From Psammoneis japonica (lineage: Eukaryota), in assembly GCA_008632985.1 (NCBI GenBank), contig QPGO01000059.1, forward strand, positions 186,001 to 250,000: a stretch of DNA of 64,000 nucleotides. Direction: 5' to 3'. The translations under genes and the position numbers were made by a program. The first letter of the stretch is position 1; each line of letters starts with the position of its first letter. Shown here piece by piece: positions 3,911 to 59,914 of the stretch. A model generated the notes under the pieces. It saw only the letters and a program-made list of their open reading frames with translations. It was not told where the DNA came from and made no database searches.

Positions 3911-6900
3911 GTTGTACTCTAGGATCGCTCTCGATCGTCATCGTGTTAAAAAAAGTGAGTGGGTGGTGGATGCTCTTTGAGATGACCAAGAAGTTTTAGC
4001 AAGAACCTGGCGGTGTTCGACACCATGATTCCTTGGTTCATTTGCATCCATCAAGCTCCCAGAATTTGCCTGTGCAAAAAAAAAAAGCACAATCTGTTGA
4101 TGCTTGTGTTGAAGACACGGCAATCAGGTGCCATGCTGCCATTTTGTTGGTTGCTGCACATGCCAGAGTCTTGGCCTTGTCTTCAATTTCAAGACCAAGA
4201 CTGTCATGTGGGATGATGTTGCTGTCCCCCACACATCCAGAAGGATTGCAGAACCAGCATGAAACCAAAAGGATTGTTGGACCAGCGTGAAACCTCAAAT
4301 GTTGAACTCACCAACAGGGCTTAGCCTGTTTCTGTGCTGGTGCTGGCTGCCCCACATTGACAGACTTGTGCCATTTCAAGCAATGAACATGACAAGCACA
4401 ACTGTCAGAAGTTGGCATTGGGGTGCAATCATTTGTCTGAGAGTCAAAAAGATGACCCATTGGAGCCATTTGGTCAGCACCCCTGGCCCTCCAACTGAAC
4501 TGTGAGTCAAGCCTTGTTGTGCCAAAGCACACACCACACCTCAAGTTCTTTGTCCTGTTGCAAGGAAAGAAGTTGATGAGCTTGAAAACATTGGAGTCAT
4601 TGCTCAAGATGCCACTTCCAAGTGGGGCGCACCTTTTTTTGTTCTGACCAAAGAAAATTGCAGAGTTCATTTCTCAACCAACTTGCGGCACCTCAACTCA
4701 TGTCTCACATGCCATCATTGCCCAATGCCAAGCCCCAACAATGTGATTTGGAAGATCAACAGGCTCACATGCACCACCTGCTTTGATCTGAACCACAGCC
4801 ATTGCTGTTGACTGTGAGCTGAGCAAGCTTTGATCTGTCATCTTGCTGAGGGGCAAGAAGTGTTGCTGCCTTTGTCTCCCACAAGGAGCCATGCCTTCAA
4901 GCAAGAAAATCTTTCAAGCTTTCATGAACCAACACTGCTTCAGCAACTTGGGAGACACTGCTGCTTTCTTTGACAACATCCTTTTGTTTGCAAAGTCTCA
5001 ACCTTTGTTCAGCACCTTCAACAAATCAAGGTCAATCTTCAATGGCTGGGCACTGGACACTGGAGACAAGAACAACCTTTGAGCGCACATTGAAAGAACT
5101 TTTTTCACTGCTCCTGAGGTTGACTTCTTGGGTCATCATGTCACAAGGAAGGGATTCACACCTCAGAAGCAAAAGACTGTTCCTGTGCTTTGTTCTGCAT
5201 CTCTAAAAAACAGAAACCAGCTCAGATCATTCAAAGGATTTGTGGATTTCTACAAAAAATTTTGGCGCCTCTTGCAAGCTGCGTTGTCTCTCCCCAGATC
5301 AAGCTTCCATGAACTGAGGTTGAAGAACAAGCCTTCCAAGCCATTGAGAAAGGCATTGCTTGCGCCAGACATTCTTGTTGCATTTTCCAGATTTAAACAA
5401 GACTTTTTTTTCTTTCCAGTGTGTGCAACTGTCAACTTGTTGGCACCATCTTGACCCAGGTGCTTTTCAATGGCAAGTGGTCCATTGCATTCCACAGCTG
5501 CAAGTCACAGCTGTCTCAAGTGCAGTGCAGCTGTGCGCCAATGTGGGGAAGGAGCTGCTGCCTGCCATTAAGACAATGAATGCTTTTTTTCTCATGGCAT
5601 TTCACTTGGACACCAGCAAGGGCATGTCACGAATGACCACGAAAACTTGACCTTCAACAAGCTCAAGTCACAGAGCATGTCAAACATTGGCGCCCATTGT
5701 TGGAAGAGTGTGGCTGTGCTTTTGAACATCATCCTGGCAAGGACAACACCACTGCCAACTTTTTGAGAGCCATCGTCTGAGATGACCAATGTCTGCCAAC
5801 ATCTTTGAAGAAGCCGTGACTTTGGAGTTCAACTGAAAATGAGTTTCCAGTCACCTGTGACTGTGCTGCAGAGCATCAAGAAGCTGCTGGCAAGTCTCTT
5901 CAGCTCAGCAAGAAAGCCTCTTCCATGCGTGCAAACCACAAGTTTCAAAAACATCAAACCGCTCTGTTGAGTGACAAGATTGTCCTTCTGTTTGCTTTGT
6001 CTCTGGCTGTGTTGTTGCGTTGGCATCACAATTCTTTCTGCAATTTTAGAGCCAGCTGCACCCACACTGCTCTTGCTCCCCACTTCTGCACTTGGAATGT
6101 GCAAGAGCTGGTCCACCGTTTTGTCCATGAGCACCAGATTTGTCAGAAACAGAAATGCACCATGAAAAAGTGTGGCAAACAGCTGCCACCAGATGTCACA
6201 CATGAGCCATGGCAAGTTGTGCAAGCCAATCTCTTTGGCCCCTGGACATTTGCTGACATTGGTGGCATTGTCCAGTTTGTCAAGGCCATCTCTGTGATCG
6301 ACGTCGCCGATGCTTGCTGGGGATCTCAAACTGTCATCACACAGCTCCAAAACCTCCATGAGCCAAAAACATCTCATTGACCACAGATTGTGCATGGTTC
6401 TGTCATCATCTGTGATCTGAGTCAGTTGTTTGTGACAACAGATTGGAGCTCATGTGCTTGAGTTCACAGACCAGCTCAACAGAGGTGGGAAGTTGAGCTC
6501 CCAAGCCAGCAACAATTGAGAGTCCTCAAGCCAGTGCAGTTGTTGAGCACATCCACCAAGTCATCAGCAACTCCACACAATCAACAGACATTGGCTCTCA
6601 ACCTTTTGATTGCTCAACTGTTGACAGCATGCTTCAACCCGTGGTGCTGGCTCTCTGCGTGCTGGTGCTTTTGCCAGCACAATGCAGCCTTTGTGCCAGC
6701 CCCTCTGCTCACATCAGAGTGCACAATGTCACAACATCTGCATGTGTGATAAAAACACATTGCCACATTGTAAAACCCACTTGTCTGCACATGACGGTTT
6801 TTGTCATTTAGCCAATCATTGGTCTCCTGCTGTTCTTCATGTTTGAACACAGATGTTTTTTAATTTTTGTGCTCTGCCTTTTTCGCAACAACTGACAATC

Positions 6901-7554
6901 TTTAATGACAAGCCAAACATTGCAATTGCGTGCAATGCAATTTTCATCATGTAAAGTGTGCGCCAATCATTTGGTCAATGATTGTGCTCCAATTTGCCTG
7001 GTCGTCCGCATCGTCCTCTTCATTCCATGTGTCTTGTCTGCTCTCTTGCAAGAATTTCAAATGTGCCACTGCCGCGTTGGATGTTTCCTTTTCACCGTTC
7101 CAAAAAAGCCACACTGCATGTCTTGCATTTGGGTGAACATCATCGAGAGGAAGAGGTCCCTTGAAACGCCGAATTGCATCGCTGCTCCCCTCTTGATGTC
7201 GTGTCGTTGGCTTCTTTTTCTCTTTCTTCATTTTGCCCATCCTGTTTTTCTCTTCCTTCTTCATCTTGATGCCACCTGTTTTCACCGTCTCTGGCGTCTT
7301 TCCATCCGAATCATTCTTTTTCATCAATCCTGTTGCCGTCGCCTTCATTGTCTCTTGTTGTTGTTTTTTTTTCTGTTGTGTGTCACTTTGTTTTGGATCC
7401 ATGTTTCTGACTTCTCTCCATGCCATCTCTGCTTCCGAGTGTTTCTTTGTGATTGTTTGCATGCGTCACTTGAAGGCACCCACGTGTTCTTCATGTGCCT
7501 TGACGTGCATGCAGAAATCCATGTTGTTTTCCAGCACATGCACCCTTTCTCCTG

Positions 7555-8619
7555 ATGCTGTTTTGCACAATGTTTTCTTCCATCAATTCTGCACTCCGCA
7601 TTGACCTTTCCCGGTGCAATCTCACGCAGGATTTCCCTGGGAGAAGTTGCACACGCGTCTGGTGGGTTTTTGTGTTTAAAACTCCAAATCCCACCAGGTG
7701 CGCATGTGACTTCTCGCATGCACCACTCTGGCACATTTCTGCAGAAACCAGATTTTTTGGTGTTGGAACAGCAACCATGGCGCCGCGTGACCTGTCGGTC
7801 GCCTCTCTGTTGCAAGACAACAATGATTCCCACCTCGAGGAGGCCGCATTTGAATCTCTCTTTGCCAATGGTTTTGGAGTGATCAATGGCAATGAGCAGA
7901 GCTGTGTCAAAGCGAAAATCGAGACGGTGAAATCCAAGGTTCAGTTCCACCGCGATTCCACTTGTGATCCCTCTCCAAATTGGATCGCGCTTGCCTGTGT
8001 GTGGCAAAAGTCAAAGGGCAGACCTCATTTTTTTGCAGAGCCAATGGCTGTGAACTGCATTGTTGCAAAGGAACTTGGGTGCAAGAGCTTGCTGCACTTT
8101 CTTTCCACAAAAGGATGGAGCCATTCCAGTCAAGGCACCAAACATCCTCATGTGTTGGAGCATCGCCGTGCTCCCAAAGCAGAGGACATGAAAGTCGTCG
8201 GCGACAAGGCAAAATCAACAGACATTGCAACCAACATGATGGCAAAGATTTCCATGTTGTGCAAGCTTCTCCATGATCCTGGATTGTGTGACCCAAAGGG
8301 AGAGCCACTTGTCAAGCACATTGAGCTGAGAAGTTTTGAAGGGAAGGTTTTGCATTGCGCGCAATGCCTTCACATTGGTTTTTTGATTCTTCGTGACAAG
8401 ATTCCACTGCACGCACCTGAAAGGAGTGGTGATTGCGATTGTTGGCTTTGCTCCCTGTTCGGCGAATGTGACGAGACATCGACTTGCATCAATTTTTTGG
8501 AGAATTTCCTGGCTCTTGGTCACTGTGAGATGACCAAAGACGAATGCCCTGTGTCCTTCCCTGAATTCGTAAAGTCGTTGTTCCACCAACACAAAAATTC
8601 TTGGGCAAAGCCCATGTGA
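7555..8619 (+). pseudogene. Cargo ORF of the TIR element, unknown function (TpA-mutated)
   Basis: 354-aa ORF inside the TIRs, with no Tyr and excess Cys/His. The real start is probably the ATG near 7777. Confidence 0.45.
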
Positions 8620-8896
8620 CCAGCGATGCTCGATGTCGAGCGAGAACAAATGCGTGCAACACACGTCAATGAGACTCTTTTAAGATGTGTGAAAATTGAT
8701 CGTGTGGTTTCTGCCGCTGACGATTCTGGCAAAAGCAAGGCCACAAGGGATCATTTTGAGGCTATGTGGAAAGCCAGGCTTCGTGACTTTGCCGCTCAGT
8801 GCAAGAAGAAAGAAGCTGGCAATGCAATTCCATCCATTGCAAAAAATGCTCGGAAACAAAAAAATCCAAATGGCATGAATCCATCACATTGTTTGT

Positions 8897-11800
8897 TTGA
8901 TTGTTTGTCCTCCTCTTCTCATCTCCAATTCTTCCATTCTTCTTGCCACCTTTTTAGCTGCCTCCCTTTGCTCCTCAAGCCCCAGTCTCAAAAACCCCAA
9001 AGATGGCGAACCTTCTGATGTTTCTCAGAACAAATCGCTGATTCTCCAAGATGTGCCGACTCTCAAGGAACAATTTGAATGTTTCCAAACAAAGTGGTCG
9101 ACCCTCGGTGCAACTTGTCAGTCATCTCCTCCTCCGCCAGACAATTTCACAAAAGAAGAGCTTGTGAAAGTGTTTCCTGAACCATCTCCGTTTGCGATTC
9201 CGGGTGAGGTGAAGTCACAACATTCTCACCTTGTTGTCTTTGAGGAAACCCCCATTTCCGGTTCCTTTGAGGGGAGCTGTGTCAAGCACCAGTCATTCCA
9301 CAGCATCTCCGATTTCTGCTTGGTGAATCACCTCCGCAAGTTTGTGCATGGATTTGAAAACGGCGTGGCTCCCAACAATCCGACGCAAGAGTTGATGGTT
9401 GCGATCATTTGCCCAACCCAGTCAACCTCTCACGGACAAGATGCATCAGAAATGCTTTTTTGGATTGCGACTCAGTGTGTCGTCGACACTCCGTGCAGTG
9501 TTGGAACATGGCGAGCCGAACGAAAAAAGGGATGGACCAGAATGCAAGTTGCGCTGTTGGATCTGTTTTGGTTGTTGTGGCCAGAATTACGAAGTCGTGG
9601 ACGGTGAGTTGGCTGAAGCAGGACCTGCTCACAAGCCTGGTGCCATCTTTGGCAGGGACAAGTGGGAGAAGCTTCCAAAGGATGTGCAGCTGATGATGGC
9701 CTCAATCTTGGACGCTGCGCAACTCTGTGAGGACAAAATCAATCTTGTTGCTTTGAAAGAAATGCGTTCCTTCTATGACCCGCACCATGATGGTCTTTTC
9801 GTGGCTGAGCTCTGCAAGATGGTTGGAGCCAAGCATTTTAGAAAGGAAGGCATGGAAATTCAAGAGAAGTGCATCTCGTCGTCCGGCGAAAAATCCGTTA
9901 ATTCGAACACCGAGCTGCACATTGACAAAGAGGATTGTGACATGGATGGGTGCACCAAGACTGGTGCTCCTTGCTTGTCACTGCGAGACGCTGTTGGTCG
10001 CTCTTGGTCGTTGAAGGTTGTCACTGCATCCAAAGGTGATGCTGGAAACTGTGTCAGTTCGGCACATGGGCATGCCGAGCTCCGATCGCGTGTGCATGGT
10101 CATTTTGCAAAACTTGATCTGTCACATGCTGCAGAAATGATGAGACACCGTGGCCCTTGTCGTCCTCCGTCGGGCAAGCTGACCCACAGAAACATCAAAG
10201 ATTTTTTCCTTGACCCTCACTCTGTGTGGGTGGAAGAGGAAATTGGCAAGCCAAATCTTCCGTCTGACACAGTTGAATGTCCCGTTGTTGTCATGCCGAG
10301 GAAACGTCTTCCGTTTCTTGCCATCATGAAGGACTTTAATTTCTCGTGCGGTTGTTTGGCAATCATCGACAACCTTGATGAGGTTGGTGCACACAATTGC
10401 TTTCGTTGCGCCGTTGTGGCTGGGCATCAAACCAGATTCTCCCGTTTTTGCTGCTTGTTGTGCAACACAGATGCTGTGAAGCGTCCTTTTGTGGCTGGCG
10501 ATTGTGTCCTTCATTGCTTCAGAGAAGCTGCAAGGCCATTCAGCAGCATTGCGGGGGATCGCAATGACCGACGCATGCAGAGCCCGGGACTCGATTTCGA
10601 GGAGGTTCATGTGGCAGAGTGCAGGACAAAACTTGACGGTTTGATGGACTTGCTTGTTGGCGGACTGGTTGTCATCATGGGCTGGATCAATGACAATGTT
10701 GGCAAGCCAACGTTTGACCACAAGGTGATCGAGGACATGTTTAAAACCGTGGTCAAAACATGGGATCATGCGGGCGCTGATTGTGGAGAGTTCAGATGCA
10801 TGAACTCTGCACAGGTGTTGATGCTGTGTGGCACAGGGATCCATGCTCACCCTGACCTTCTTAATCTTGTCTGTCCGGCAGCCAAGTTGGGAGCGGTGAA
10901 GCAAATGGAGGAAATGAAGGTCCCGGTGGAGGAGCGCGATTTACTCTTGGAACGGACAGCGGGTGATTTTGATTTGGAAGACTGTGGAAAGAATGGCCCA
11001 GTGTCTTCACTGTGTGACCTGAGTGCAGCTCGTGAAAAGATGGGAATCTGCGATGTCTTTTGTTGTGGACAGCATCCATTGCTCTTGTTCTCTGATGGGC
11101 AATCAATGATCAAGCAGTTTGGAAGGTGTGAATGGGAGCGCCAGCCCCACTCGTGTCGATTGATGAAGTTCGAGCCGAACTGGAACGGCAAAGAGAGGTC
11201 ATTTTTTCATGGCAATCACATTTGTTTTTTGTCTGATTTTGCTGACATTGTCACATTGAATTCTCGTTCTAACAGGAAGAAGGCCGCCGGTGATTTGTTG
11301 TCATTTGCAATGAACAAAAGTGACGATTGCAAGGAGGAGTCAATTGACGAGAACACAAGCGAACTTCCAACTGCTTGCATGGGTGAAGAGGACAAAAGCG
11401 AAGAGCCTGTTGACGATGAGCACAACCAAGTTGCACATTGCTCTGAGGGTGAAGAGGACCACAGCGACTTGGGAGATTGTTTCACAAGTGACAAAACTGA
11501 CGGGGAAACACACGATGCACTGTGGTTGGGGATGACCCGTCCACTCAATGCAAGGCATCTATCTTCTCAAGAATTGTGCTCTGAGAAGGGGGTGGCCTCA
11601 GTGTCACCTGACCAACACAGGCGAGACGAGGCATGCGCAATGGCATTTGAGGAAACTGACAAAACAATCACAAACGTCGTTCCAACAGTTTCTCTCCAAG
11701 ACAGCCATCCTGATCTGCACTTAAATTGCAGTGTGAAAGCAAGAGATTTCGTCAAGAGAGTCAAGCAGCAGTTTGAGAAAATTGTTGATTTTGACAATCA

Positions 11801-12269
11801 TGGGTTCGACCAAATCATGTTGGACTGCTGCTGGATGCCAGATGGAGAGTGGCGCGATTCTCGTTTTGGGACGACTCAATTTTTCCAGAATCCAATTGAT
11901 CTTCGGGCCTTGCTCTCCAAAAACGGAGAAGGGGGGGACACAGTGATTCCCTTTGCTCTTGCAACCTTCTTCCAATTGTCGGCTGTGTTCGACATGTGCA
12001 CAATGGACAATGATGCTGCAAAGAGCCGTGCAAGCACATTCTTTGCAAGTGACCTCATGACCCAAGAACAACTAGAACGGTGGTTGGGAAAGCCTTCCGA
12101 TCAGGAAGAAGCTCATCTTGGAGTTTCAGAAGAAGACATCAGAACGAAAGCAATGGAAGGTGCTCGTGCCGCACTGCTTCACGTGTGCCACAATGACTTT
12201 GCCAATTCTGAAAGGATCAAATTCATCATGTTTGCAAGAAAGAGCCAGGAAATCACTGTGAGTGAATGA
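8897..12269 (+). pseudogene. Large multidomain cargo gene of the TIR element; possible HxD dioxygenase-like region and C-terminal SAM-methyltransferase-like domain
   Basis: Overlapping 236-aa and 956-aa ORFs (probable frameshift at about 9400-9600). Motifs LHIDKED (about 9915), ALWLGM (about 11517) and FDQIMLDCCWMP (11805-11840). Domain calls are by eye only. Confidence 0.45.
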
Positions 12270-12292
12270 CAGATTGATGCGCGCATCCCATT

Positions 12293-15200
12293 TTAGAAAC
12301 AAGTCTGACCAACACTTCCTTCTGTCCTGTGCAGCCCAAACAAATGGGGCCTTTTCTTGCACTTCTGCCACTCCTGGACATTCTTCATAAACCAAAACAT
12401 TGTCCCCAATTGCTTCGATGGGGACAACCCGCAACTCAGGTGAGTGCTGAGTCTTCTCAGGCATTGAGAGCCAGTTGTTTCATTTGTGATCAAGCTGCCA
12501 GCGACTGTCCAAGTCTGTGTGCTGATGCCATTGCCTCACAGTTCTCTGGTCAGCTTGACAAGCAGTTGGATGGACCACTGCAAAAATTGATCCTGGGTCT
12601 TCCTGTTCAAAGAAACACAGCAAACGGGAGGGAAACTGTTGGCTGCCCTTTCGTGTGCCAAAGGTCACATGGGCACAGTCATGCCATGGGCCTTCGCTTT
12701 TGTAATTGGGGTGCGCACGGTGCGCATCCCTTCCGTTTGCATTGTAAAACTCTGTCTTGCAAGTCAGATGTGTGTTTTCATCATCTTCACCAACACAATC
12801 CTCCCACTTTTCTGACATGAAGTTTGGCAACACAGGATGAACTTGGCAACGAGTGTGCAAGCTGTTCCACTCAAACGTCACAGCGCGGATCCCTCAGTTG
12901 CAGGTGAGAGTGAACACACTTCCTCCCAGCGTGTGATTGTCCATCCTGACTCTTGATGTTTCCTTTTTCCCAGTTGGCAAAATCCAACTGTCAGCTGAAA
13001 TTGTGGCGTTGAGCCTCATTTGGTCCTCCGTGCGTGACACGACCTGCTTCAGAAAACTGCCGAGGTTGCATTGTTGTGTGGCAGATGATGGCAGCTTGAA
13101 AAAGTCTTTCAAGAGACACTCCCCCAAGCCTGCGTCAAAGTTCATCGCATGTCGGCAACAATGAAGAAACGCCAGGAGATGGAGTGTTTCATGAAGCTTT
13201 TGAAACTTCCGCCCGCATCCTTCTGTTCGCGGGACGAATTGCACTGTCCGGTCAATGAGGAGACGGATTTTCTTGTTTATTTTCTGAACAGATGAGCTGG
13301 GAGTTGCGCTTGTGATGGGTGGATCGCCTGGCCTGTGCCATGCGTGGAAGACAAGAAGATCCTCGAGCAATTGAATGAATTGCCGGACGCTGCAGTTGAG
13401 TCTTTTTCCCTTGCATTTTTTCTTTTTTTGGTTGTCGTCACCATCCTCTGCCTCGCTCTCCTCTTTCTCATCCTAATTTTCGTCCCAGTCACCCTCTTTG
13501 GACTCCTCCGACCTTTCATCGTCAGAGTCCAAGTGCTCACCAGGTTGGTGGCAACTCTCAAAGTTTGCTTTGGGCATCTTGCGATTCTCTGGAACAATGG
13601 GTTCATCTGCGTCCTCGTCAAGGAAGCATGACTCACATGCGTTTCGTCCCTCGCTGGTTGACAGGAGAAGGTAGAAAACAAAAGCCATTCCAGCCCAGTG
13701 GTGAGAGTTGAGGAAGGTGAGCAACGTTGCTCCTCCTTTGAAGTTTGTTTGCAAAAAGGATGTTTTGCAAGTTGACCGGTGATTGCTGAAAATCCTTTCC
13801 ACTGTGCTGTCCACCTCACTTGCGACCACAGGTGTCATGCTGTCTACAAATGAATTGATCACCCTTTTCAAGGTGCCGTTTTCAAAGAGATGCATCATGT
13901 CGCTTGCTGTTGCAAGGGCAACGCCATGTGGTTGTGCGCCAAAGTCTGCCTCAAAAAGACAGTTGGCAGGTGCGTTGTGTTGCTCAAGGTGATGCAAGAT
14001 GCCCAACCAGTGCTTCCTTTTTCTTGGTCTGATCTGTTGTCATCGTTGGCCTCAGTTTGCACTTGTTGGAGATCCAGTCCTCAGACAAACTCACATTCAA
14101 TCCATGGGTCGTCCAGTTTGTTGAAGCCAGTGAGGCAAAAACGACAGCAATGTTGACGACAGTTGTGACCTCCGCATCGTCCGACAAGACAGTCACCACT
14201 TTTTGCATCTCCCATGATCAGAACGATCAGTGGGATTGCGTGGAGGTGTCGCATCTCATCCCCTCATCGCACGCATGTTTTCATGCCTCCTTTTCTCATG
14301 ACTTCCAAAAGTGGCTCCAAAATGACATGCAAGCAAGTGTGGCAGTCTCTTGACGAGCGTCCCTTCTCCGCCTTGCGATTGTTTGAGAAATTTTTTGCTG
14401 CAGATGACGACATCTTTTCCAAATCAGGGAGATGACCAATTGGTTTCCAGACACTCTTGTCCGACCATTTGTTGAAGGCAACATGCGCAGAGGTCATGAT
14501 CACTGGCACTCCGCAATGTGATCCCATCCCTTGTGTCCCACCAGTCTTGTCGAGGCAAATGACATTGCACTCGAGAAATTGTTTCTCCGGGTCAGTTGTC
14601 CGTTCTTCGTAACTGCGCCTGAACCACTCACCCGCCAAAAGGCACTTGTCATCCTGTCCCTTCGCTTTGCACTTCCCAAAAGGATTGTCTGGATCGGCCA
14701 CATTCTCTCTGCTGCACCACAGGTGAGGATCGAGCAAAAACAGTTCCCAAACCTTTGTGAAATCCCATCTTGGCACTGACACTCGTTTTGGCAAACCGGT
14801 TTTGAAATTTTTGGTTTCTAGAGTGACAGGAATAGACTCGCTGGGTGGAAGAGGGAAATGCTCAGTCAAGGTGCACATCAACTCTTTTCTCCTTGGCAGA
14901 ACTGTGCCAAGCTCAATGTTGCTGTTCCCAGCGTGCCTCTCAATGAAATCAACAATGCAGTTGCACAATTCCAGGGGAGCACCACGTGTGTCCATGAGCT
15001 TCTTGCACAACTCTGCGCAAGCTCCGTCAAGATTTGTCAAAGAGGGAGCAGAAGCCAAGGCCTCTTCTGCAGGAGTGTGATTCCTGATCCCCAAACGTTG
15101 ATCCTCATCGTGAACATCCTCTTCCTCCTCCATTGTCACATCCAACACTGCAGCAAAGGATTGACCACCGCCAACATCCAAATCGTTCATTGCCAAAAGT

Positions 15201-15478
15201 TCAACTCCATGCATGCTGTGGTTTGATGAAATGGAGGACATGTCATCCATTCCATGCGGAGCGTCATCCGGGGAGGGGAACAAGGGGCTGCTGCTCGGAT
15301 CACTCGTTGAAGATCTTGGGAATCTGCTGTGAGCAGATCGCCTCGGATGGGGTTCGTCATCATCAGAGGACGAAGAGGAAGAACCACCACTTTCTTTGGG
15401 TGGCCCCTCCATTGTGGCAGGAATGTCACTTTGATCTGGGATCAGATCTTGGGTTTGCAGCTCTTGGCGTGATTCCAC
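12293..15478 (-). pseudogene. Plavaka-like transposase, broken by stops and frameshifts
   Basis: Collinear motifs ICLDKTG, WKPIGHLPDL, IMGDAKSGD, SDMMHLFENG, FQKLHETLH, NFDAGLGE..LKDFFK and RAHPNYKSEGPWHD. Confidence 0.75.
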
Positions 15479-16259
15479 ATGATGACATCACTCGTGCACA
15501 GTGCGTGATGGCTTGATTCGCACGATCCACAATGCGAACGCACGATCGATTTGATGCGATCCAAATGCGAACGAATGGGGATTTTGGCAAGATTCCCCAT
15601 TTGCACGATCCCACTTTCTCTGCTCTAAACTAGCTCACAATTTTCACAACGACAAAGTCGCAACACATCTTCTTTTTCAGCACCTGGCACATGCATGGGG
15701 CACAGCAATTGGGCAACTGAGTGACTTGTTGGTGAGTGTCTCCAATGGCAGGCCATTCGCAAAAAACTTTTGCCACACCCGGGACAGAGAAGAGGGTTTC
15801 CGTCCATTGTCAATCAGACAATGTTGACAGGGCCTTCATCAAGACTCATGCTTGTCGTCCTTGTCTTGTGGATGAGAAGGGAAAAGAAGAACAACACGCA
15901 AAAAATGGCGGGAAATTGGCAAACATCACATCATCTTCCAGATTTGGATGATTCTTGTGGGCATGACGTGTCTGCATTTTAATTTTTTATCTGGCATTTA
16001 CAATGAATGTTGTGCTTTTTATTTGCTGTCAAAATGCAGGACATCATCTCCGTTGAAATGCAATGACAGCCATGTCAAAAAGCAAGTTGGACTGTTCGTT
16101 GTTGTGTGCAAACACATTTTCAAATTTCAGTGTTGCTGACAACAATTTGTGCAATGTCACAGAGAAAAACAGAGTGGCTGGCTGTCTCAACACGACCCAA
16201 ATGATGGTTGCACTGTTGAACAGCAACACTCCTCTCATCGTTGTCGTGAAAAGATCAAG

Positions 16260-17566
16260 ATGTCGTCTCCAGCACCACCAGCAAAGAAGAGAAAGAAAAA
16301 TGAGACGATCAAGCCAATGAGCCCGAGACTTCAGGCAGTGTTGAAGAGAACAGGTGCGCAGGCAGCGTGTGGTGCATTGAAATCAGAAGAAGAGAAGGTG
16401 GCCCCAGAAATGATCTCTTTCCACAGGTGAAGTTTCTCAGTCCGTCAGAATTGGCAAGCAATGGGAGCGTCTCAATGTTTGTCAAGAAACAGATTGCTGG
16501 TGGCAACATGGACACTTCAAATTGGTCAGGAACTTGGGAGGAATGGGCAAAAAAGGCGGCAAAAAGGCAAGTTGACAATCGCAGAAACACGGTGTGTTCA
16601 GCCATTGGGGCAGAGGCAATGGCCTGCAAGCCAAGTGACCAATGTGTGTGATTCGAGAGTTGTGTGCATCTCACAAGAAGATGACGGTGATGCTTTGTCT
16701 GTGCAGGCGTTGTCACCAAGGAAGAGGGAAAGGAAAAAGAAAAGAAACTCAAGGCGGCAGTCAGGAGGAAAAAGCAAGGCAGGAAAAAGTCAAGCTGTGA
16801 CAAGAATGAAAAGAAAGATGTCCCGTTTGTGCCGACATGGGATCTGTTCAGCCTGGACACTGTCGCCGGTGGCAAACGAAGGAACAAGCAGGCACACAAG
16901 TGGTTCTGTGATCACATCCTGCCTCAAACCAAGCAAAAGCAGGCATGGAGCAGCGCCATCAAAACTGGGAACGCACAGGTCTCACAGTTGTTTGCGGTTG
17001 GTGACGAAGCTTTGGCGCTGTTGGCCATGGAGAATTGTTGGCAGGTGTGGGCATGCAGGAACAAGGAGGAGGCGGTGGAAGAATTGGGTGAGGAAATGGA
17101 GCCCGAAGAAACAAGGCCTGCCCCTCGGTGCACGAAGCCAAAGAAACAACGAGTGTCTTGGGGAGACGACGGAATCAATCGGTTCAACGATTTGTGCAAA
17201 GAGGTGACGAAAGATGGAGACTCCAAGGAGGGTAAGGAGTTTGAAAAGTGGCATGCGGAGATCAAGAAAAGCGAGCACGAGAAGTCCGGAGAAGCAAAAA
17301 AGAAGAAGAAGAAAGCACCGACCGGTGACACGGATGAGGTGAAGGCAATGAACAGCCCAATGGTGGAGAGCAGCAGGGATGACAACAGCAACAACAATGA
17401 GCAGGAGGAAGGCGCAAAAGGCAAAATGAATGATGGAGGAGACGAGTCCGATGGAGACCAGTCCGATGATGATCGTCAGCTTGGTTCAAGAGAGTTGCAG
17501 CAAGAAAATGTGTGCACAGTTGACATGGCACTCGGTCATTGCACTGCAGACGTAACAAGGGATTGA
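16260..17566 (+). pseudogene. Accessory ORF of the TIR element, divergently oriented from the transposase
   Basis: Basic N-terminus (PAKKRKK), motifs GDEALALLAMENCW and SWGDDGINRFNDLCKEV, acidic tail. Split across frames. Confidence 0.55.
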
Positions 17567-18223
17567 CTTGACCGATGAAATGCTTTTCTTGTTTAAAATG
17601 ATGTTTGCGAAAATCAACAAACCAAGGATTGTGTGGCAATGCAATCACGCGTTGGCATGTGGCAACAAGGTGGGGGCAGACACAGCGATGTGGGCGCAGT
17701 GAAAAACAGCACACATGATTCTTGGCAAGTCACTGCAACATTGGTGTGGCAAACTTGCAACCAGAGGTTGGCCTGTCATTGTGTGACAATAATTTTTTGC
17801 AATGTTTCGACAAATTGTCATCATGCAAATCTGCACATTTTTGACATTTCGTGCACTCTGATGCAGCTGGTTTTTGGTCATGACACATCTGGCCAATTGG
17901 AAGTTTGTCAACAAGTGTTGCACTCAAAATGTCCTGTGCAACAACACACATGAAAATGCCGGCCACTTGCCTTGTGGCTGCAAAGCTGGCAACCAAGTTT
18001 GCACAACCACCAAGGACGACGTCCAATGCAAGCAAGTTCTTGAACCCTGAGGAGGGTCCTTTTCACATTGTTCGCAATCATGCCAATGGCACAGTCACCA
18101 TCCAGTGCTCTCCTGACGTTGCTGAATGGATGGACGTCTGTCGACTTCACCCTGTCTTCTATCTGCTGCTCTAGAGCTACCACTAGCTAGAGAGTAGAGA
18201 GCCTGCCCAGTTGGGGAAGCGAG

Positions 18224-21067: not shown

Positions 21068-22817
21068 TACCCAGGCTATCCAGCAGTTCCTCCCAGCCAG
21101 AAGAAGAAGAGAAAAGGAAAAGAAAGCAAAAAATAGCCATTGATGTAGTTTTGATACGGGGCGCTGTAGTGCCGCAGCACGCAGTGCAGACGGACGCATG
21201 CAGGTGCAGACGCGCCACGTCCCGGCGACAATTACAAGTGGTGGAGGCAGGCCGTTGAGGAACTCGGGAGCGGCAGGCAGGGTGCGTTAGGCACGTCGAA
21301 TTCGGTACGAAGTGTCATGCGTTTATTTATGCACGCAGAAGGATGTGGATCGCCAACGCCTGGAACACAGCACACAGCAGTCAGCACACCTCCATCAGTT
21401 GTTTGCACACCCTTGGAGCTGCACCCAGAATTGGGTGTGTGTTGTGCTCTCCAGAGCAAAGACCAGAGAAGGGCTGTTCATGCGAAAGCCACTGGGCAAG
21501 GACCTGTGAAAATGCAAGGTCCCAGAAAGCTGCGAAGCCTTGACAAGACTCATGAAGGAGAGAAGCGCCACCCATTTCTCTCAGCAACAATGCGCAGAAG
21601 TGTCAACGCAGTGTGCAAACACAAGATTGGGGTGCCCAACCACTGTGCAACCATCCAGCAAAACCAACCATAAAAATGCAACAATTTCGTAAAATCAAAA
21701 ATTTTGATTGGACCAGCACATTGCGCAGAAATCTGCGCACACACGTCACACAACGTCGAATGGATTTCAACCAACAAACCAAGAGTGCGTGAATGCAAAT
21801 GTTGCACAAAACGGAGCAACAGAGAAAAAAATGGATTTGCAACAACAAACAAAGAAGGCAGACGAGCCAAAGAAAACTGAAGAGGACAAGAAAAGGGTGC
21901 AGACAGATGCAGAACTGTTTCAGTCAGCAACGAACAAAGAAGACGGGGAGAAGATTGCGGCGGAAGAAGCAAGAGCGGCGTTCGAGCTTGCTTCAGGAAA
22001 TTGTGATGTCTCTCATCTGCACTTGTGCCAGACAACACGAGAGTGGACGGTTGTCATGTGGAAGCAACGGCTGTGCCCAGGGATGATTCAACCATGGAGG
22101 AGCTAAAGGCAGCGTGGGCGGCAGCACCACCACAGACTGGTGGGAGATTTTTCACCGAGGAGGAGCTGGAAGAAGCAGGAGCAATGGAGCAGGAGAAGGA
22201 GCAAGCAAGGATCCTACGGAACAAGTGTGGACAGAAATGATGGAATGGGTGCAAGTTTCAACCAACCATTCAGCAAAGACAACCGCGTCAGTGCGCAAAT
22301 TTCACACACTCAGACTTTCACTTGAGCCACCGTGGATCGAGCATGGACAGAAACAATGGAATGGGCACAAGCTGCGACCAACTGTTTGGCAAAGACAACC
22401 GCATCAACACGCAAATTTCGCACACTTTCACTTTCACTTGAGCCACCGCACCTCGAATTAGACAACATCAATGTGCACAGATGAACTCGTGAAACCTCAC
22501 AGAAGACAGAACGGTCAGAAGCAAAACAACCAGCACCGTGCACTGCTCTGGCCCCAATGCATGTTAGTCAGGTCACGTGGGTCGCGCAGAAGTGCGCACC
22601 GTGCAGGTGGCACCCTGTTTCGAAAAAACAACCATTGTGTGCTACAATTGGTTTGGACGCCCGGCGCAAAACTCACTTGACAGGTAAAAAAATGCAGCAA
22701 AATGATTGGTGCAAGCAATCATCACGCCTCTGTTTTCTGACAGTGGCGAGCGCGGCAATCCAAAATCTTTTGGTTTCAGACTTCGATGCAGAGAGTTCCA
22801 CCTGAGAGAGGAGGAAC
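21068..22817 (+). mobile_element. Insertion containing a Helitron-like helicase C-terminal fragment
   Basis: Absent from the homologous position in the third repeat unit (about 29200-29210). Encodes NWVCVVLSRAKTREGLFMRKPL, the PIF1-like motif YVxLSR with Y to C. Hairpin GTTCCACCT-GAGAG-AGGAGGAAC at the right end. Confidence 0.6.
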
Positions 22818-24270
22818 CAATTCCTCCAACAACGTTTGACTCGTCCGACTCTGTTCCTGGTTGTGCGGTGCCAAAGCATGTGCACCACATCTCAAGCTCT
22901 TTGTTCTGTTGCAAGGAAAGAAGTCAATGAGCTTGAAAACATTGGAGTCATTGCTTGAGATGCCACTTGCGATTGGCTGGGGTGCCACACCTTGTTTGTT
23001 CCTGCCAAAGAAAAATGGCAGAGCTCAACTTGTGGCACCTCGACTTCTTGTGTCTCACACGACATCCTCCTTGCCCAGCGCCAAACCCTGGTGATGTGTT
23101 TTGGAAGATCAACCTGCTCACATGCACCACTTGCTTTGATCTCAACCATGTCCATTGTTGTTTTGTGCTTGACCACAAGCTGAGCATGCTTTGTTCTGTC
23201 ATCTTGCTGCGGGGCAAGTGTGTTGCCACCTTTCTCTCTCCTCCCACAAGGAGCCATGTCCTTTTGTTTGCAAAACCACAACCTTTGTTTGGCACCTTTG
23301 ATGAATCAAGATCATCAAATGTTGGCACCCATTGCTGTTGGAAGAGCATGGCTGTGCTTTTGAACATTGTCCTGGCAAGGACAGCGCCATTGCCAACTTT
23401 TTGAGCAACCAATGGCACCATGACTGATGTCTCTCTGGCAACAATTTTGAAGAAGCCCCAAACTTTGGAGCTTTCTGAACATCAGTTTCCAGTCATCTGT
23501 GACTGCGCTGCAGAGAGCATCAAGCTGCCAACAAGTCTCCTCAGCTTTGTGAGAAAGCCCTCCATGCACACAAGCCATGAGTTGCAAAAACATCATGTCA
23601 CTCCATGGAGTGACAAGAATGTCCTTCCACTGGCTCCATTTCCAGCTGTGTTGCACTGGCATGACAGCTCTCTCTGCCATTCTGGAGCCAAGAAGAATTG
23701 CACCCACCTTGCTCTTGCCACCCACTTCTGCACTCAGAGTGTGAAAGCAAGAATCCAGTCATCTGTGACTGTGCTGCAAAGAGCCAAGCTGCTGTCAAGT
23801 CTCTTCAACTTTGTGAGAAAGCCCTCCATGTGTGCAAGCCATGAGTTTCAAAACCATCAAATTGCTCTGTGGAATGACAAGATTGTCCTTCCACTGGCTC
23901 TGTTTCCAGCTGTGTTGCACTGGTGCCACAACTCTCTCTGCCATCCTGGAGCCAATGATTGCACCCACCTTGCTCTTGCTGCCCACTTCTGCACTTGGAA
24001 TGTGCAAGAGCTGGTCTGCTGTTTCATCTGCGAGCTCCAGATTTGTCAAAAACAGAAATGCACCATGAAAAAGTGCAGCAGACTGCCGCCACCAGATGTC
24101 ACTCATGAGCTGTGTGGCAAGTCATGTTGTGTGGGCATTGACCACTTCTTTGTCAAGGCTGTCACTGTCATTGGTGTTGGCACCACTCATTGGGGATCAA
24201 ACTCTCATTGCACAGCTCCAAAACCTCGAAGAACATCTCATTGATTGAGGGTCATGCACGGTTTTGTCAT

Positions 24271-24666
24271 GACGGGTTCCAGTCCTAGGTGGGACTTTTT
24301 GTGACATTGGGCCCGTAGAATTCTACGTGCGAGCTCCGTAGTGAAATTATTAAGCAATGAATATATGAATGATCGCCAACAGAAAAAGAGGCAATTTTGC
24401 GAACGTATCTCCTCCTCCACACTTGAAGTACATTCTTTACAGTATGCCCGGGTATATTCTTTAGACATTAAAGAATATACCCAGCGCATTTTTATTGACA
24501 TAAGTGCAGATAACAGAAAGCCTTTGGCTTCGCAAAACAGGCAGTGTGGAACAATTTTTTATAATAGAACACGTAGAAATGTACGTGCGAAACATACGAC
24601 GGATGATAAAACATAATTATGTCACAGTTCAGCAGTACGAGGTCCCACCTAGAGCTGGAACACGTC
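24271..24666 (+). mobile_element. 396-bp MITE, copy A (TpA intact)
   Basis: TIRs GACGGGTTCCAGTCCTAGGTGGGAC and GTCCCACCTAGAGCTGGAACACGTC; 4-bp TSD TCAT/TCAT. Absent from Gypsy copy 1 at about 6405. Confidence 0.9.
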
Positions 24667-24893
24667 TCATCTCATCCACAGCCCAAATCAGTTGTTTGTG
24701 GCAATGGATTGGAGCTCACGTCTGAGTTCACAGACCTGCTCAACAGCCACAGAGTTGAGTCCAAGTGCCTGCAACAATTGATGGCTCAACTGTTGACAGC
24801 ATGCTTCAGCAATCTGTTGCTTGGGCCCTGTGTGCCAGCGTGAAGGCGGTGCACCAGCCATTGTGTCTGCCCCACTGCTCAGCTGGTTGCTTG

Positions 24894-25793
24894 CCAGACT
24901 CAGGCGGTGTGCACAAGAGCAAAAAAGTGCTGTTTTTGCATGAAATGCACAGCCCAAACTTGTGACACAATTGGCTGATGGCAAAAAAGCACAGACAACA
25001 ACATGTCAAGACAGGAAAACATGCAGAGAAAGGTGTTGTGCGTGTGCCTGCATCAGTGTTTCTGAAGATTTATCAGGTTCGTCATTGCGAAATGGTGCCA
25101 CAAGATGAAAGCTCAATTTTTCCTTGAGAGCAACTTGTGCTCACATCCATGCACTTGCACAAAACACACACGAGTGTTCTTTCACACAAATGCGATCATG
25201 CAACATGAATCATGCCAAACAACTCTTGTGACACAGGCTCGCAATTGTGACTCAATGGCTTTGTCTGCATGTGCGTTGAGCAATGAACTGTGTGACAGTC
25301 TGGTCAAGAAAATTGTTGGTGCCACAACGGCGTTAACTTTGGACCCTTTCATGCTGTTTTCTCAATGTCAATGACTGAGAATCCTGCACCAGTCGACAAT
25401 TGGGAAATGGCTCGCGTGACAAAGGAAAAGAGATGGTCTTCCTCAGCATCAAGCCGGGGGCAAAGCAAGGCTGGCTGTTGCCTGTGAAAGCTGCAGTCAC
25501 CATGGTGAAGTGCAAATGTGTGCCACAGACTGCAACAATTGTTTTTCATCATGCACGGCTAATTTGTCAACTGTGTCGAATGACGCGGTCCTCATGGTGC
25601 CCTTCGATTTTTTTATGAGGCCAAAAAGGGGGGCCACCATGGCTGCTGAAAGCCATGGCTGTTTTTGTTTCTGTTTTTCTTGTTCATTGGAGCTGAAGTG
25701 ATGAGCACAATGTTTGCAACTCAAACATTTTTGACATCATGAAAAGCTTTAATTTTTCGCGAAAACGGGCATGTGCGTGCCACCCAAGTCTGG
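24894..25793. mobile_element. About 900-bp non-autonomous TIR element (possibly hAT-derived)
   Basis: Imperfect TIRs CCAGACTCAGGCGGTGTGCACA and TGTGCGTGCCACCCAAGTCTGG interrupt the Gypsy integrase QLVF codons. No clean TSD. Confidence 0.6.
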
Positions 25794-26440
25794 TTTTCAG
25801 TTGTGACATGGTCATTTCCATGACGCATCTGACCAGCTGGAAATTTGTCAACAAGCATTGCACTCAAAATGTCCCATGCAACAATGCGTGTGAAAATGCC
25901 GGCCGCTTGCCCCGTGGCTCTGCAAAGTCGTCGACGAGGTCTGCTCAACCACCCCGCCCAGAGTGTCCAGCCAACGCATGTTGAGCCCTGGGGAGGGTCC
26001 TTTTCACATGATGGTGCAGTCACCATCCAGTGCTCTCCTGATGTTGCTGAACGGACCGACGTCCGTCGACCTCACCCTGTCTTCTAGCCAGAGCCTGCCC
26101 AGTTTAGTTGGAAAAGCGAGTGCCCCGTGGGGGGTGTGTGTCTGTCCGTGTGCGTGTTCTGTCCGTGTTTCCCAGTGATTTTCAGAATGTTTCTCCGTGT
26201 TTTCAATAAGTCATTTGCGTGTAATAAGTCTTTTCAATGACTTATTATGTGTCATGGTTCGGTTTCTGATCACTTCTAAGTAGGCCCTACTACGTTCTAC
26301 ATGAGTCATTCATTCTACGAGACCTGGAGATCGGTCTCACAAATTCGAGCATTTAACAGAACAACTACTACATTATCAGCTATCACTTGGCGCCATTGGG
26401 CAGTGTCACAATCGAGTTCGAATTATGTGATCAAGAAGCC

Positions 26441-33330: not shown

Positions 33331-33393
33331 GTACAGCAACGACTGCGTCTTCACGTTCGCAGTGCCATAACAACCACATGACTTCACCATTCA

Positions 33394-44759: not shown

Positions 44760-46490
44760 GCATTTGACATTCAAAGCACTGTGAAACCCAAGGAAGAGGA
44801 TTTTTTGCTCAAAGCACTGTGAAAGCCTTTTGGTTGGCCACTGTGTCATGTTGTGCCCTTAAGAACTCCCGGCAGCTTTCATCAATCACTGGGCTCGTCC
44901 CTGGTTGTTGTTGCTTCTTGTGCTGCTCAGGCTGCCTTTGCGAAAGCAACTGCCTGCATCTTGCATCAGAGCAGCTCAGTTCTGTGCATGTGCGGCAGCA
45001 GCTTTGAATCACTTGAATGAAATTTTAGCTCCCTTTTGTCAATCTTGCATGACCTCAAATGCCACTCAGATTCTGTCCAGCCCGGCAGACAATCTTTTGG
45101 ACGAAACACCCTGAAATTTTGGCTCCCTTTTGTCAACCTCACATGACCTCAAAGGCCACCTAGATTCCCTCCAGCCTGGCAGGCAATCTTTTAGATAAAA
45201 CACTCACAAAATCCTTCTGGACAAGAGTCCATTTTGTTGCAATGACAAAAACAACAACTTTGAAGCTCCTGCTGCGCGCCAATGTGTCAAAAAACTGTCT
45301 CGCTGTTTGGAGCACCAGCTGCACACATTTGGCACCCACCCCAAGGAGGCGAAAAGTTGGTGCTCTTGCTCCACATGAAATGGGCCTGGTTTTGCTGGCC
45401 ATGAGGAGTGCACTGTGCTCAAAGAATGAGTGTGCAAACAAAAGCAGAACAAACCACAAACAGCGGAAATTGTGAGACTGAAGTTTGTTCTGCAACTGTG
45501 GGATTCTTTGGAGCTCTCAATGATGGCTCAAAGAATTTGTGATTTGTGCTGCTCCTGCAGAAAACAAAGCCCCCCTTTTGGAGAATCCAATCATGATGCA
45601 ACAAATTGTCCAGATGTGATCAACATTGACACCTCATGTGTCAACTTTGTTTGTTGATTGTGGTTGTAATTTTAGATGTCCAATCAATTCTGTGTGATTG
45701 GTCTGACCTGCACACGCATCCACGACTGTCGCGCAATTGACGCGCACACAAAACAACAAAATGTGCAATCATGTGGGAGTGTGATGGCATTTTTCATCCC
45801 AAGGGTTCTGCAAGAACATTGTTCATTAAAATGTGAGCATTGGCTGCAAGTGCTTGTAGAGATCAAAAGTGCCAGTTGTTGAAGCACTGTTGTGTTGTCA
45901 CCGAGTGAAGTCTCGCCCAACACATGTGACTTGCACAGCAGGGCAACTTGGCTCTGGCTGCTTTTGCGCACTGTGGTCACATCCATCTTAAACCTGCCAA
46001 TTGTCTTTTAGAGCTTGAGTGTTCTCTGGACAGCTGTGGCAGGTGTGGAAATGCTGTCGAAGTCAGTGTGTGCTGTGGCAAACACAAAACTTCGCAGCTG
46101 TCATCTCACACACACAAAAGTGTGTTGTGCCGGCTGGCGAGCATCCTCCACTTGGGGTCATGAGCATGACTCATGCAGTGTGAGCTGCTGCTGTGGCAAT
46201 GTGCACTCAGTTGCAAAAATGTCATTGCCTTCTTGCTGGCAATGACATTGCATTTGAGCCATTTTTTTCTCATGCTCAGTCTTGTTGCAAAAGAGACTCG
46301 GCTGCTTTCAAACGCTGCTGGCAGCATCAAAAATACACGCCAAAGATGGAGCTTCAAAATGATGTCCCTGCCCACGACACTCTCTTCACATTTCTCAAGT
46401 GGAGCCGCACATGAGCAAGTCTGAGGACAAGAAGTCCACATTTTCAAATTTGGTGTGTGCAAAAGCTCCTGCACATCTGGAACTGAAACT
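44760..46490. mobile_element. Decayed TpA-depleted block, probably transposon-derived (family not identified)
   Basis: Same TA-poor, TG/CA-rich composition as the other blocks. Internal short duplication at about 45020-45200. No intact ORF. Confidence 0.5.
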
Positions 46491-59518: not shown

Positions 59519-59914
59519 GACGCGTTCCAGCTCTGGGTGGGACCTCGTGCTGCTGAAGTGTGGCATCAACAGTTTTTTGGATCGCGCTGCATGTCACACA
59601 TGCAGATGGCCAAGTGTGACATTCTACAAAATTGTTTCATGCTCCCTGTTTTGCAAAGCCAAAGCCTTTCTATTTTCAACATTTGTGAGAATGAAAATGT
59701 GCTGGGCATGTTCTTTGTTGTCTGCAGAACATGCCCGGGCAAACTGTTGATGATGTGCCACAAGTGCGTGGGAGGAGATGCGTTCATAAAATTGCCTCTT
59801 TTTCTGTTGGCAATCATTTGCATTTTCATTGCTTGACAAATTGCTGTGCAGCTTGCACGCAGAATTCTGTGGGCTAAATGTCACACGGAGTCCCACCTGG
59901 GGCTGGAGCCGGTC
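59519..59914 (-). mobile_element. 396-bp MITE, copy B (TpA-converted)
   Basis: Reverse-complement homolog of 24271-24666 with the same length and TIRs. Flanks GGTG/GGCG. Confidence 0.9.

Follow-up and report, generated by a model that had tools for sequence, protein, structure and literature searches.

How can two copies of the same small transposable element, in one stretch of a diatom-like alga's genome, differ at nearly every TA dinucleotide that one of them holds? The stretch is a window of 64,000 nucleotides (the whole of the DNA analysed) from Psammoneis japonica, assembly GCA_008632985.1, contig QPGO01000059.1, positions 186,001 to 250,000. The element is a 396-bp miniature inverted-repeat transposable element (MITE), present in the window as a TA-rich copy A and a TA-poor copy B. 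An earlier note on this DNA had read the two as a natural before-and-after experiment, with TpA intact in one and converted in the other. The answer we have come to is that silent DNA in this genome is very probably hypermutated from TpA to TpG or CpA, that copy B and most other copies of the family have been through this process, and that copy A was inserted later. The direction of the change, its specificity for one dinucleotide, its confinement to certain regions and the relative order of events at copy A are established by the comparisons that follow.

That the two copies belong to one family, as the earlier note had claimed, is plain from their build. Both are 396 bp long, carry 25-bp terminal inverted repeats (TIRs) and stand between 4-bp target-site duplications (TSDs); the arms of copy B's duplication, CGCC and CACC in element orientation, differ by a single CpG-type mismatch. 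Searching the 64 kb with a degenerate pattern of the 25-bp repeat returned the four termini of A and B only, against a chance expectation of 0, and no third copy of the family was found within the window. Folded back as single-stranded DNA, the element gives z = -6.5. With its TIRs, its TSDs, its small size, its lack of coding capacity and many copies with different flanks (see below), it is a typical non-autonomous DNA transposon and a very abundant one. Aligned end to end, A and B are 76% identical (301 of 395 columns), and because their differences include 36 transversions, they are family members rather than parent and daughter, which is also how the earlier note had seen them.

What sets the two apart is the fate of TA. 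Copy A has 32 and copy B 4, and all nine of the TA-specific changes quoted earlier can be seen in the alignment, so the reading of A as unconverted and B as converted holds. Of A's 32 TA, 31 are gone in B, 24 of them as CA or TG; the full tally is CA 14, TG 10, AA 4, GA 2, TT 1, TA 1 and CG 0. The reverse case, a TA in B that reads CA or TG in A, occurs 2 times against these 24 (p = 1e-5). Of the 12 classes of substitution from A to B, the two largest are T>C with 25 cases and A>G with 15. Counted over both strands, A-to-G change has struck 24 of 64 adenines preceded by T and 16 of the 168 others (Fisher p = 2.5e-6). Along copy B the two outcomes, CA and TG, are interleaved in 13 runs over 24 sites where about 12.7 are expected by chance; no strand-coordinated runs of conversion were found at these 24 sites, nor any sign of long single-strand tracts. 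CpG has changed as well: copy A holds 18 CG and copy B 11, and 10 of A's CG are CA or TG in B. GC content stands at 48% in copy B and 41% in copy A.

The setting of copy A puts these differences in order. It is a sharply bounded TA-rich island with a perfect TCAT duplication and TA-free flanks, just as first described. Before its first TA there are 1601 bp free of TA, from 22685 to 24286, and on its right the last TA of the element, at 24650, is followed by the next at 25071, a gap of 421 bp. One flank has 0 TA in 1500 bp and the other 5 in 1418 bp, with observed/expected ratios (o/e) of 0.0 and 0.05 for TA and 0.18 and 0.49 for CpG. Copy A is also young by a second clock, its CpG o/e being 1.06 against those 0.18 and 0.49. 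Since both its TA and its CpG are intact within 1.6 kb of TA-free DNA, it was inserted after its host block had been converted, the order of events that the earlier note had proposed. Coordinates are collected in Table 1.

Table 1. Features of the 64-kb window that bear on TA conversion.
Feature	Coordinates	Strand	Remarks
MITE copy A, unconverted	24271..24666	+	396 bp, 32 TA, TA o/e 0.95, CpG o/e 1.06
MITE copy B, converted	59519..59914	-	396 bp, 4 TA, TA o/e 0.15, CpG o/e 0.49
Copy A 5' TIR, 25 bp	24271..24295	+	0 mismatches to degenerate repeat pattern
Copy A 3' TIR, 25 bp	24642..24666	-	88% complementary to 24271-24295
Copy A TSD TCAT, left	24267..24270	+	direct reading
Copy A TSD TCAT, right	24667..24670	+	direct reading
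Copy B TSD, element orientation	59915-59918 / 59515-59518		CGCC / CACC
Largest TA-free block	3998..18159		50 TA in 14.2 kb; tandem-gene-copy homology ends at about 4056
TA-free block hosting copy A, left part	21329..24270		8 TA in 2.9 kb
TA-free block hosting copy A, right part	24667..26084		5 TA in 1.4 kb
Small TA-poor block	45027..46489		10 TA in 1.5 kb, 94-bp tandem units
TA-free CpG-poor block hosting copy B	57032..64000		continues past window end
Converted 957-codon open reading frame (ORF)	9396..12266	+	2 Tyr; in largest TA-free block
Converted ORF, weak Plavaka (KDZ-type) transposase match	14267..15487	-	E = 1.3e-4, 21.8 bits against Pfam cut-off 26.3
Homocysteine S-methyltransferase relic	61073..61624	+	N-terminal 193 aa only; in block hosting copy B

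Beyond the window, the family was surveyed in the contigs of one public run (X1), aligned to positions 23871-25066 at a likeness of at least 80%. The run is probably the sample behind the assembly, and its library type is not on record. On this stretch 2315 contigs align, in likeness classes of 291, 555, 865 and 604, the 291 being at least 99% alike to the reference stretch that holds copy A. Summed word depth, which is not a copy number, lies between 20,000 and 284,000 across the MITE and between 57 and 355 on its flanks. The loose ends of the other copies start at 24270/24271 and run into unrelated flanks (low flank agreement). The family has hundreds to thousands of members. Like the earlier note, we are unable to name its superfamily: the 64 kb contain no autonomous partner, and scanning metagenomes for the degenerate pattern of the termini gave 120 single chance matches and no family member. 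As to copy A itself, its junction contigs have the depth of unique DNA, and contigs at word depth 57-65 reproduce both junctions together with the TA-free flank, with 1 and 0 differences. No empty site or insertion polymorphism at copy A was seen in this one sample, which does not show that polymorphism is absent. A joint from 24227 to 24723 (495 bp skipped, side 24), considered as a possible empty site, is imprecise and belongs to a paralogue.

Three independent tests, drawn from family copies, outgroup proteins and paralogues, agree that the change runs from TA to CA or TG. The family contigs vary at 104 places, 57 of them A>G (28) or T>C (29); the remaining places are largely CpG-type and background change. 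Variant detail comes from the best 40 of the 104 places, and there all 23 of the 23 A>G or T>C variants inside the MITE fall in a TA of copy A, where 64 of the 232 A/T positions are within TA. A single TA may show both outcomes. By depth-weighted contig shares, which are not copy counts, C and G stand at 0.37 and 0.60 at 24364/5, at 0.57 and 0.33 at 24429/30 and at 0.41 and 0.44 at 24455/6, with TA kept in 3-15% of depth at these three sites. CA and TG are each one step away from TA and two steps away from each other, and where both are common at one TA, that TA is therefore their common ancestor. The earlier note had proposed that a family consensus of TG or CA at these sites would mean that copy A had gained TA. 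Part of this stood, for a majority of copies do have C or G at several sites (86% G at 24349, 75% C at 24406), because most copies are converted. It does not follow that copy A gained TA: both derivatives occur at the same TA. As a test, the consensus was too simple and would have misfired.

The outgroup proteins tell the same story. In 14 columns where homologues have tyrosine (5 in the methyltransferase relic and 9 in the 957-codon ORF) the window reads Cys (TGY) 8 times, His (CAY) 3 times, Phe 3 times and Tyr 0 times. Control columns were kept at Phe in 7 of 13, at Trp in 5 of 6 and at Cys in 4 of 4. Arginine in the methyltransferase relic is down to 3 against a mean of 11.2, its place taken by Cys and His, so the CpG decay is polarised too. 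Among paralogues, double differences in which a CA faces a TG occur 10 times in 306 bp and 11 times in 261 bp when the copies are TA-free, and 3 times in 2414 bp and 6 times in 1525 bp when they are ordinary gene duplicates. The TA-free set includes adjacent 264-bp tandem units, and conversion therefore took place where they lie, after the copies existed.

How far does the process reach in the window? Converted DNA makes up five blocks totalling 27.0 kb, or 42% of the 64 kb, at TA o/e 0.05; the remaining 36.7 kb has 0.54. TA density is bimodal and the borders are sharp, each 500-bp bin having a TA o/e of at most 0.18 or at least 0.31. Going from normal to converted DNA, TA per kb drops from 38.0 to 3.5 (34.5 lost) and CG from 55.5 to 25.3 (30.2 lost), and CA+TG climbs from 148.4 to 210.9, a gain of 62.5 against a summed TA and CG loss of 64.7. 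Every block that has lost TA shows CpG decay too. Stretches with mild CpG loss (7001-18000, CpG o/e 0.4-0.8) are as empty of TA as those with severe loss (about 0.1), so TA loss must saturate long before CpG loss does. Without TAA and TAG to end them, long false ORFs abound on both strands of the blocks, each with 0-2 tyrosines. Block borders coincide with structural borders, namely the ends of copy A and the point at about 4056 where homology stops; the gene DNA beside the largest block, at about 3850-4056, looked at for leakage of conversion, has few TA sites.

The blocks are not uniform inside. In the largest, TA survive in clusters, 6 within about 200 bp at 6750-6952 and 4 within 40 bp at 15980-16020, perhaps because short insertions arrived there later or because the contexts resist conversion. 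Neighbouring sub-blocks (4001-7000, 23001-24000, 57501-64000), with TA uniformly near zero, differ in CpG o/e from 0.03 to 0.8, a spread that points to elements nested in one another and unlike in age or in methylation history. The left part of copy A's host block contains the 264-bp tandem units just mentioned and has a repeat family in common with 5900-6210; no coding homology was found in it.

The recognised targets of conversion are the MITE, the weak transposase-like ORF, the methyltransferase relic and the 957-codon ORF, and most of the block DNA has no recognisable origin. The earlier note had called the host of copy A a Gypsy element, and this we could not sustain. A Pfam scan of 72 block ORFs of at least 110 aa at E <= 0.01, in which heavy conversion may hide weak similarity, found reverse transcriptase, integrase or gag in 0 of 72, and no long direct repeats resembling long terminal repeats bracket the TA-free blocks. 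The ORF beside copy A (23405-24241) has no homologue at E <= 0.001, and no viral hallmark domain was found among the 72 ORFs. The methyltransferase relic has 107 homologues (best E = 3e-29), has no Tyr at all and reads Cys in conserved Tyr columns. It is a fragment that was captured or else an acquired gene that has been silenced; its named homologues, among the matches listed, are few and bacterial, with 29-38% identity.

Not everything repeated is converted. Tandem gene duplicates that are 90% alike over 2.4 kb keep 88 and 100 TA, 61 of them in common, so being duplicated is not enough in itself to trigger conversion. A tandem unit present in three copies, 85-90% alike, is unconverted at 2456-4080, 18517-20994 and 26390-29123; the TA-free blocks separate the copies, and the unit includes an ORF with a weak NYN/YacP-like domain (27934-29055, minus strand).

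The TA that survive conversion have neighbours in common. Writing R for purine and Y for pyrimidine, survival in converted relative to normal DNA is 0.3% for RTAY (1 versus 428), 7.5% for mixed contexts and 33% for YTAR (51 versus 212; Fisher p = 5e-22), and the most resistant tetranucleotide is TTAA (24 versus 48). By trinucleotide, 3-4% of TAY, 10% of TAG and 23% of TAA remain. Within the family, sites with one favoured strand changed in the predicted direction in 10 of 11 cases (p = 0.012; from the best 40 of the 104 places), the three sites with both outcomes are all RTAY, and TA of the YTAR type also vary (24351, 24462). Tyrosine codons after a pyrimidine have become Cys 7 times and His once, and after a purine the ratio is 2:2 (p = 0.24, not significant). 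A strand-symmetric preference for the A of 5'-TAY, which is the T of 5'-RTA, with TTAA largely spared, is supported but not proven.

Taken together, a process can be sketched. Silent DNA, meaning transposons, unclassified repeats and at least one gene relic, would be hypermutated at the DNA level, TpA turning into TpG when A becomes G, or into CpA when the same event on the other strand appears as T to C. A single hit would remove the TpA and leave the site immune, so that CG would never be produced; both strands are used site by site, with one transition per dinucleotide. The favoured target would be the A of 5'-TAY, such that RTAY would be wiped out and YTAR, above all TTAA, would often survive. 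Ordinary CpG decay runs in parallel in the same blocks. Copy A is the family's original TA-rich active form, recently inserted into a block already converted. The family is not immune, and so either copy A arrived after the most recent round of conversion, or a process that works continuously has not yet had time to reach it. Fast rounds are favoured over slow decay by the bimodal landscape and by saturation whatever the state of CpG.

There are points that weigh against this account and against its flank rule in particular. The 23 of 23 and the 10 of 11 come from the best 40 of 104 places, and change in the opposite direction may hide at lower share. The family shares are depth-weighted contig figures, from a run that is probably the assembly's own sample. 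The A/B pair does not display the flank rule, top-favoured sites giving 2 TG to 1 CA and bottom-favoured sites 3 CA to 3 TG, and the tyrosine-codon test of the rule falls short of significance at p = 0.24. Some of the surviving TA could be new mutations, not resistant sites. A 5'-TAY preference is unlike the known neighbour preferences of ADAR (3' G) and of eukaryotic ADAT2/3 substrates.

What else could have produced such a landscape? The most radical alternative turns the polarity round: the family would have been TA-poor, and the lineage of copy A would have gained TA by C-to-T change in the manner of repeat-induced point mutation (RIP). A naive consensus agrees with this, given the C or G majorities at single sites (0.86 and 0.75). 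Against it stand the CA and TG derivatives at the same TA, the variation of YTAR-type TA as well (24351, 24462), the 291 of 2315 contigs at least 99% alike to A, the outgroup-polarised Tyr-to-Cys/His changes in the same window, the TA o/e of 0.15 that the supposed ancestor would have had against 0.54 in ordinary window DNA, and the CpG that copy A keeps (o/e 1.06). As far as the window allows, reverse polarity is refuted, and we give it next to no chance. An artefact of assembly or base calling, caused by modified bases in repeats, strikes us as scarcely credible too. The library type of the only run is off record and the run is probably the assembly's own sample, which leaves this idea some footing; yet contigs of exact 31-mers at depth 57-65 reproduce the junctions of A with their flank, implying accurate reads, and a systematic miscall would turn each motif into a single product, instead of CA here and TG there, and would not leave copy A untouched.

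Two further alternatives accept the direction and dispute the tempo or the occasion. Mobile or foreign DNA might be born converted, edited on entry or on transposition in APOBEC-like fashion, with copy A an escapee. Such a view sits well with conversion borders that are also structural borders (the ends of copy A, and about 4056) and with 2.4-kb tandem gene duplicates, 90% alike, that keep their TA, duplication being no trigger. It sits badly with adjacent 264-bp units that show 11 CA/TG double differences in 261 bp and so were converted after the tandem arose, with the conversion of a truncated cellular-type gene relic, and with the chlorarachniophyte Bigelowiella natans, in which resident single-copy inserts are mutated in place by the account in the main text of the preprint (10.64898/2026.01.13.699255); we consider it very unlikely. 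A slow, continuous TpA-specific mutation bias in heterochromatin, where the degree of conversion simply reflects age and there are no bursts, is unlikely as well, if less easily dismissed. CpG decay goes alongside TA loss in every block, the aligned contigs span all likeness classes (291, 555, 865 and 604), and an unconverted copy A need only be young. Yet a slow bias fits poorly with a bimodal TA density (500-bp bins at most 0.18 or at least 0.31), with TA loss that is equal at CpG o/e 0.4-0.8 and at about 0.1, and with the rate in B. natans, which its main text puts at about 1000-fold above background in 11 of 15 lines only (10.64898/2026.01.13.699255). Hypermutation of silent DNA, with copy A arriving later, remains our reading.

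On the chemistry we are more tentative. Our leading guess, which we would put somewhat short of an even bet, is the route proposed for B. natans: a deaminase that is guided to silenced chromatin and turns adenine in DNA into hypoxanthine. Some weight is left for a chemistry not yet considered. Sequence cannot separate deamination from oxidation of thymine, because the two give the same change seen from opposite strands. In the thymine route, the thymine of 5'-RTA would be oxidised by a dioxygenase of the TET/JBP type to 5-hydroxymethyl- or 5-formyluracil and then mispaired or mis-repaired, T becoming C. A>G and T>C would again be one event viewed from two strands, and the sequence fits this equally well. 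Thymine hydroxylation at TpA is familiar from base J in kinetoplastid telomeres and from hydroxymethyluracil in dinoflagellates. What brings this route into the discussion lies in the window itself: a gene copy, now converted, with intact relatives that are predicted to fold like TET/JBP proteins.

That gene copy is the 957-codon ORF. It has 94 relatives (best E = 2e-73), 92 of which have at least 0.5% Tyr. None of the 16 relatives scanned has a Pfam domain, Tet_JBP included, and an HxD motif is conserved in the relatives. Two of them, P0300 and P0307, are nearly free of tyrosine, one with 1 Tyr and 14 Cys in 247 aa and the other with 0 Tyr and 16 His in 219 aa, and by their sequences look like gene calls on TpA-converted copies. 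A structural model of an unconverted relative, built with 44 sequences, reached a predicted local distance difference test (pLDDT) of 86 and a predicted template-modelling score (pTM) of 0.81. It matches TET2 (Z 9.0, 207 aligned, root-mean-square deviation 4.6), NgTET1 of Naegleria (Z 8.9) and CcTet of Coprinopsis (Z 7.6), followed in the structure list by FTO, CMD1 and AlkB homologues, Z values of 7-9 being only modestly above those that unmatched models reach. Foldseek gave no match for the modelled relative at E <= 0.001. The helical C-terminal domain bears a weak likeness to a phage 5-phosphomethyl-deoxyuridine transferase (Z 7.4) and to AGOG glycosylases. On the strength of the model, the intact relatives would have a TET/JBP-like dioxygenase fold. 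The ORF lies 2 kb from the weak Plavaka/KDZ transposase match. TET/JBP genes on KDZ transposons are known from basidiomycete fungi, and the pair here, if real, would be a KDZ-TET/JBP transposon outside fungi.

For the thymine route, then, there is the model-based TET/JBP-like fold (TET2 Z 9.0), and there is the weak likeness of the C-terminal domain to a phage enzyme acting on 5-hydroxymethyl-deoxyuridine derivatives (Z 7.4). Against it, the TET/JBP-like gene sits on a transposon and is itself destroyed; Z values of 7-9 are little above those of unmatched models, and there is no Pfam Tet_JBP match; a literature search found no report of hydroxymethyluracil in diatoms, most of the matches listed being on dinoflagellates; and base J comes after a pyrimidine rather than a purine. 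A dinoflagellate review does not, in its available text, give a TpA preference for hydroxymethyluracil. On balance we find the thymine route unlikely. A bolder version, in which the erosion would be a mutational scar or by-product, or even the purpose, of thymine oxidation at TpA by enzymes carried on KDZ-like transposons with a domain resembling those that process hydroxymethyl-deoxyuridine, is a long shot. On that reading silent DNA would first receive a chemical mark on thymine, as with base J, and were it true, a RIP-like result would be tied to a novel system of DNA modification in diatom-like algae.

How does the process compare with those already known? Fungal RIP changes C to T, making TpA from CpA and TpG and lowering GC, and is triggered by duplicated sequence. 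Like RIP, the process in the window hypermutates by dinucleotide-specific transitions, disables mobile DNA and leaves behind blocks of skewed composition with sharp edges. Unlike RIP, it destroys TpA, raises GC and removes TAA and TAG stops instead of creating them, and it spares gene duplicates 90% alike, homology alone being no trigger. RIP itself is rejected as the process, its polarity being opposite and the 2.4-kb duplicates, 90% alike, keeping 88 and 100 TA. CpG decay by deamination of 5-methylcytosine also works on a self-complementary YpR step in silenced DNA and yields the same TpG and CpA products, but it hits C:G pairs, is unsaturated where TA loss is complete and cannot turn Tyr into Cys or His. 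ADAR and APOBEC share deaminase-driven hypermutation of mobile elements, and ADAR also favours a 5' U; they act, however, on RNA or single-stranded cDNA and mark one strand, whereas here a DNA transposon is hit and the outcomes are interleaved. A literature search found no account of TpA loss in diatom repeats, and a Rhizoctonia paper considered as a precedent concerns, as far as its available text goes, ordinary transition bias and RIP indices.

The closest counterpart is the TpA hypermutation of integrated viral DNA in B. natans (Mettrop et al. 2026, 10.64898/2026.01.13.699255), which we describe from the main text of that preprint. Of the 302 nuclear point mutations in mutation-accumulation lines, 231 lay within two silent viral regions integrated in the genome, and 230 of these 231 were A>G or T>C, all 230 on TpA; the rate was about 1000-fold above background, with mutations in 11 of 15 lines only (10.64898/2026.01.13.699255). 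Because the process was on in only some of these asexually propagated lines, the sexual cycle, which the earlier note had offered as an example of what such episodes might be tied to, is not required there. The B. natans genome has clusters of windows poor in TpA and rich in CpA+TpG, its low-TpA coding sequences are enriched in transposase and reverse-transcriptase domains, and as the agent its authors suggest, with no biochemical proof, a DNA adenine deaminase resembling ADAT2 (10.64898/2026.01.13.699255). The main text makes no mention of diatoms, stramenopiles or trinucleotide context (10.64898/2026.01.13.699255).

The two cases, on this account of B. natans, have in common A>G and T>C change on TpA to TpG and CpA, discrete silent regions beside normal DNA, and long-term loss of TpA with a gain of CpA+TpG, and the intermittent activity there would fit an unconverted newcomer such as copy A. 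They differ in organism, a chlorarachniophyte there and a diatom-like ochrophyte here, and in depth: TA o/e is 0.05 over 27 kb here, which is saturated, against 0.45 in the viral insert there. Ordinary DNA has 3.8% TA dinucleotides here and 6.0% there. The targets there are viral inserts; those seen here are a MITE, a gene relic and a block that resembles a transposon. CpG decay alongside, and the TAY/TTAA flank preference, are seen here. B. natans offers de novo mutation in real time, whereas the evidence here is comparative only.

A few other features of the window deserve a line. Aconitase B (38137-40737, plus strand) and monomeric isocitrate dehydrogenase (42032-43126, minus strand) are bacterial-type genes with long uninterrupted ORFs, 1.3 kb apart; the aconitase B is 65-70% identical to those of 12 named diatoms, which are 71-94% identical among themselves, and the collection searched has no near-identical protein. 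The window is thus not from B. natans. Tandem repeats of about 306 bp at 32745-33642, in at least 3 units 65-95% alike, partly overlap the 3' part of a stop-to-stop ORF (33394-34611, minus strand) with ankyrin and MYND-finger matches.

Before the 2026 preprint we knew of no natural process that rewrites chromosomal A:T pairs at one dinucleotide. The prior report, going by its main text, concerned one chlorarachniophyte with viral inserts only half depleted (10.64898/2026.01.13.699255). The TpA signature now appears in a diatom-like alga, in a second major branch of the stramenopile-alveolate-rhizarian (SAR) group, where conversion is complete over 42% of 64 kb and strikes DNA transposons, a gene relic and repeats of no assigned class. 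The window also supplies a dated before-and-after pair of one element, and a first sequence rule, TAY favoured and TTAA spared, supported as said above, to which any candidate enzyme must conform. Two consequences are practical. Because TAA and TAG stops and Tyr codons are absent from converted elements, gene finders will call long false ORFs in them; and repeat libraries built by majority consensus will reconstruct a wrong, TA-poor ancestor. The putative TET/JBP-like and KDZ-like pair in a diatom-like alga would be worth attention in itself.

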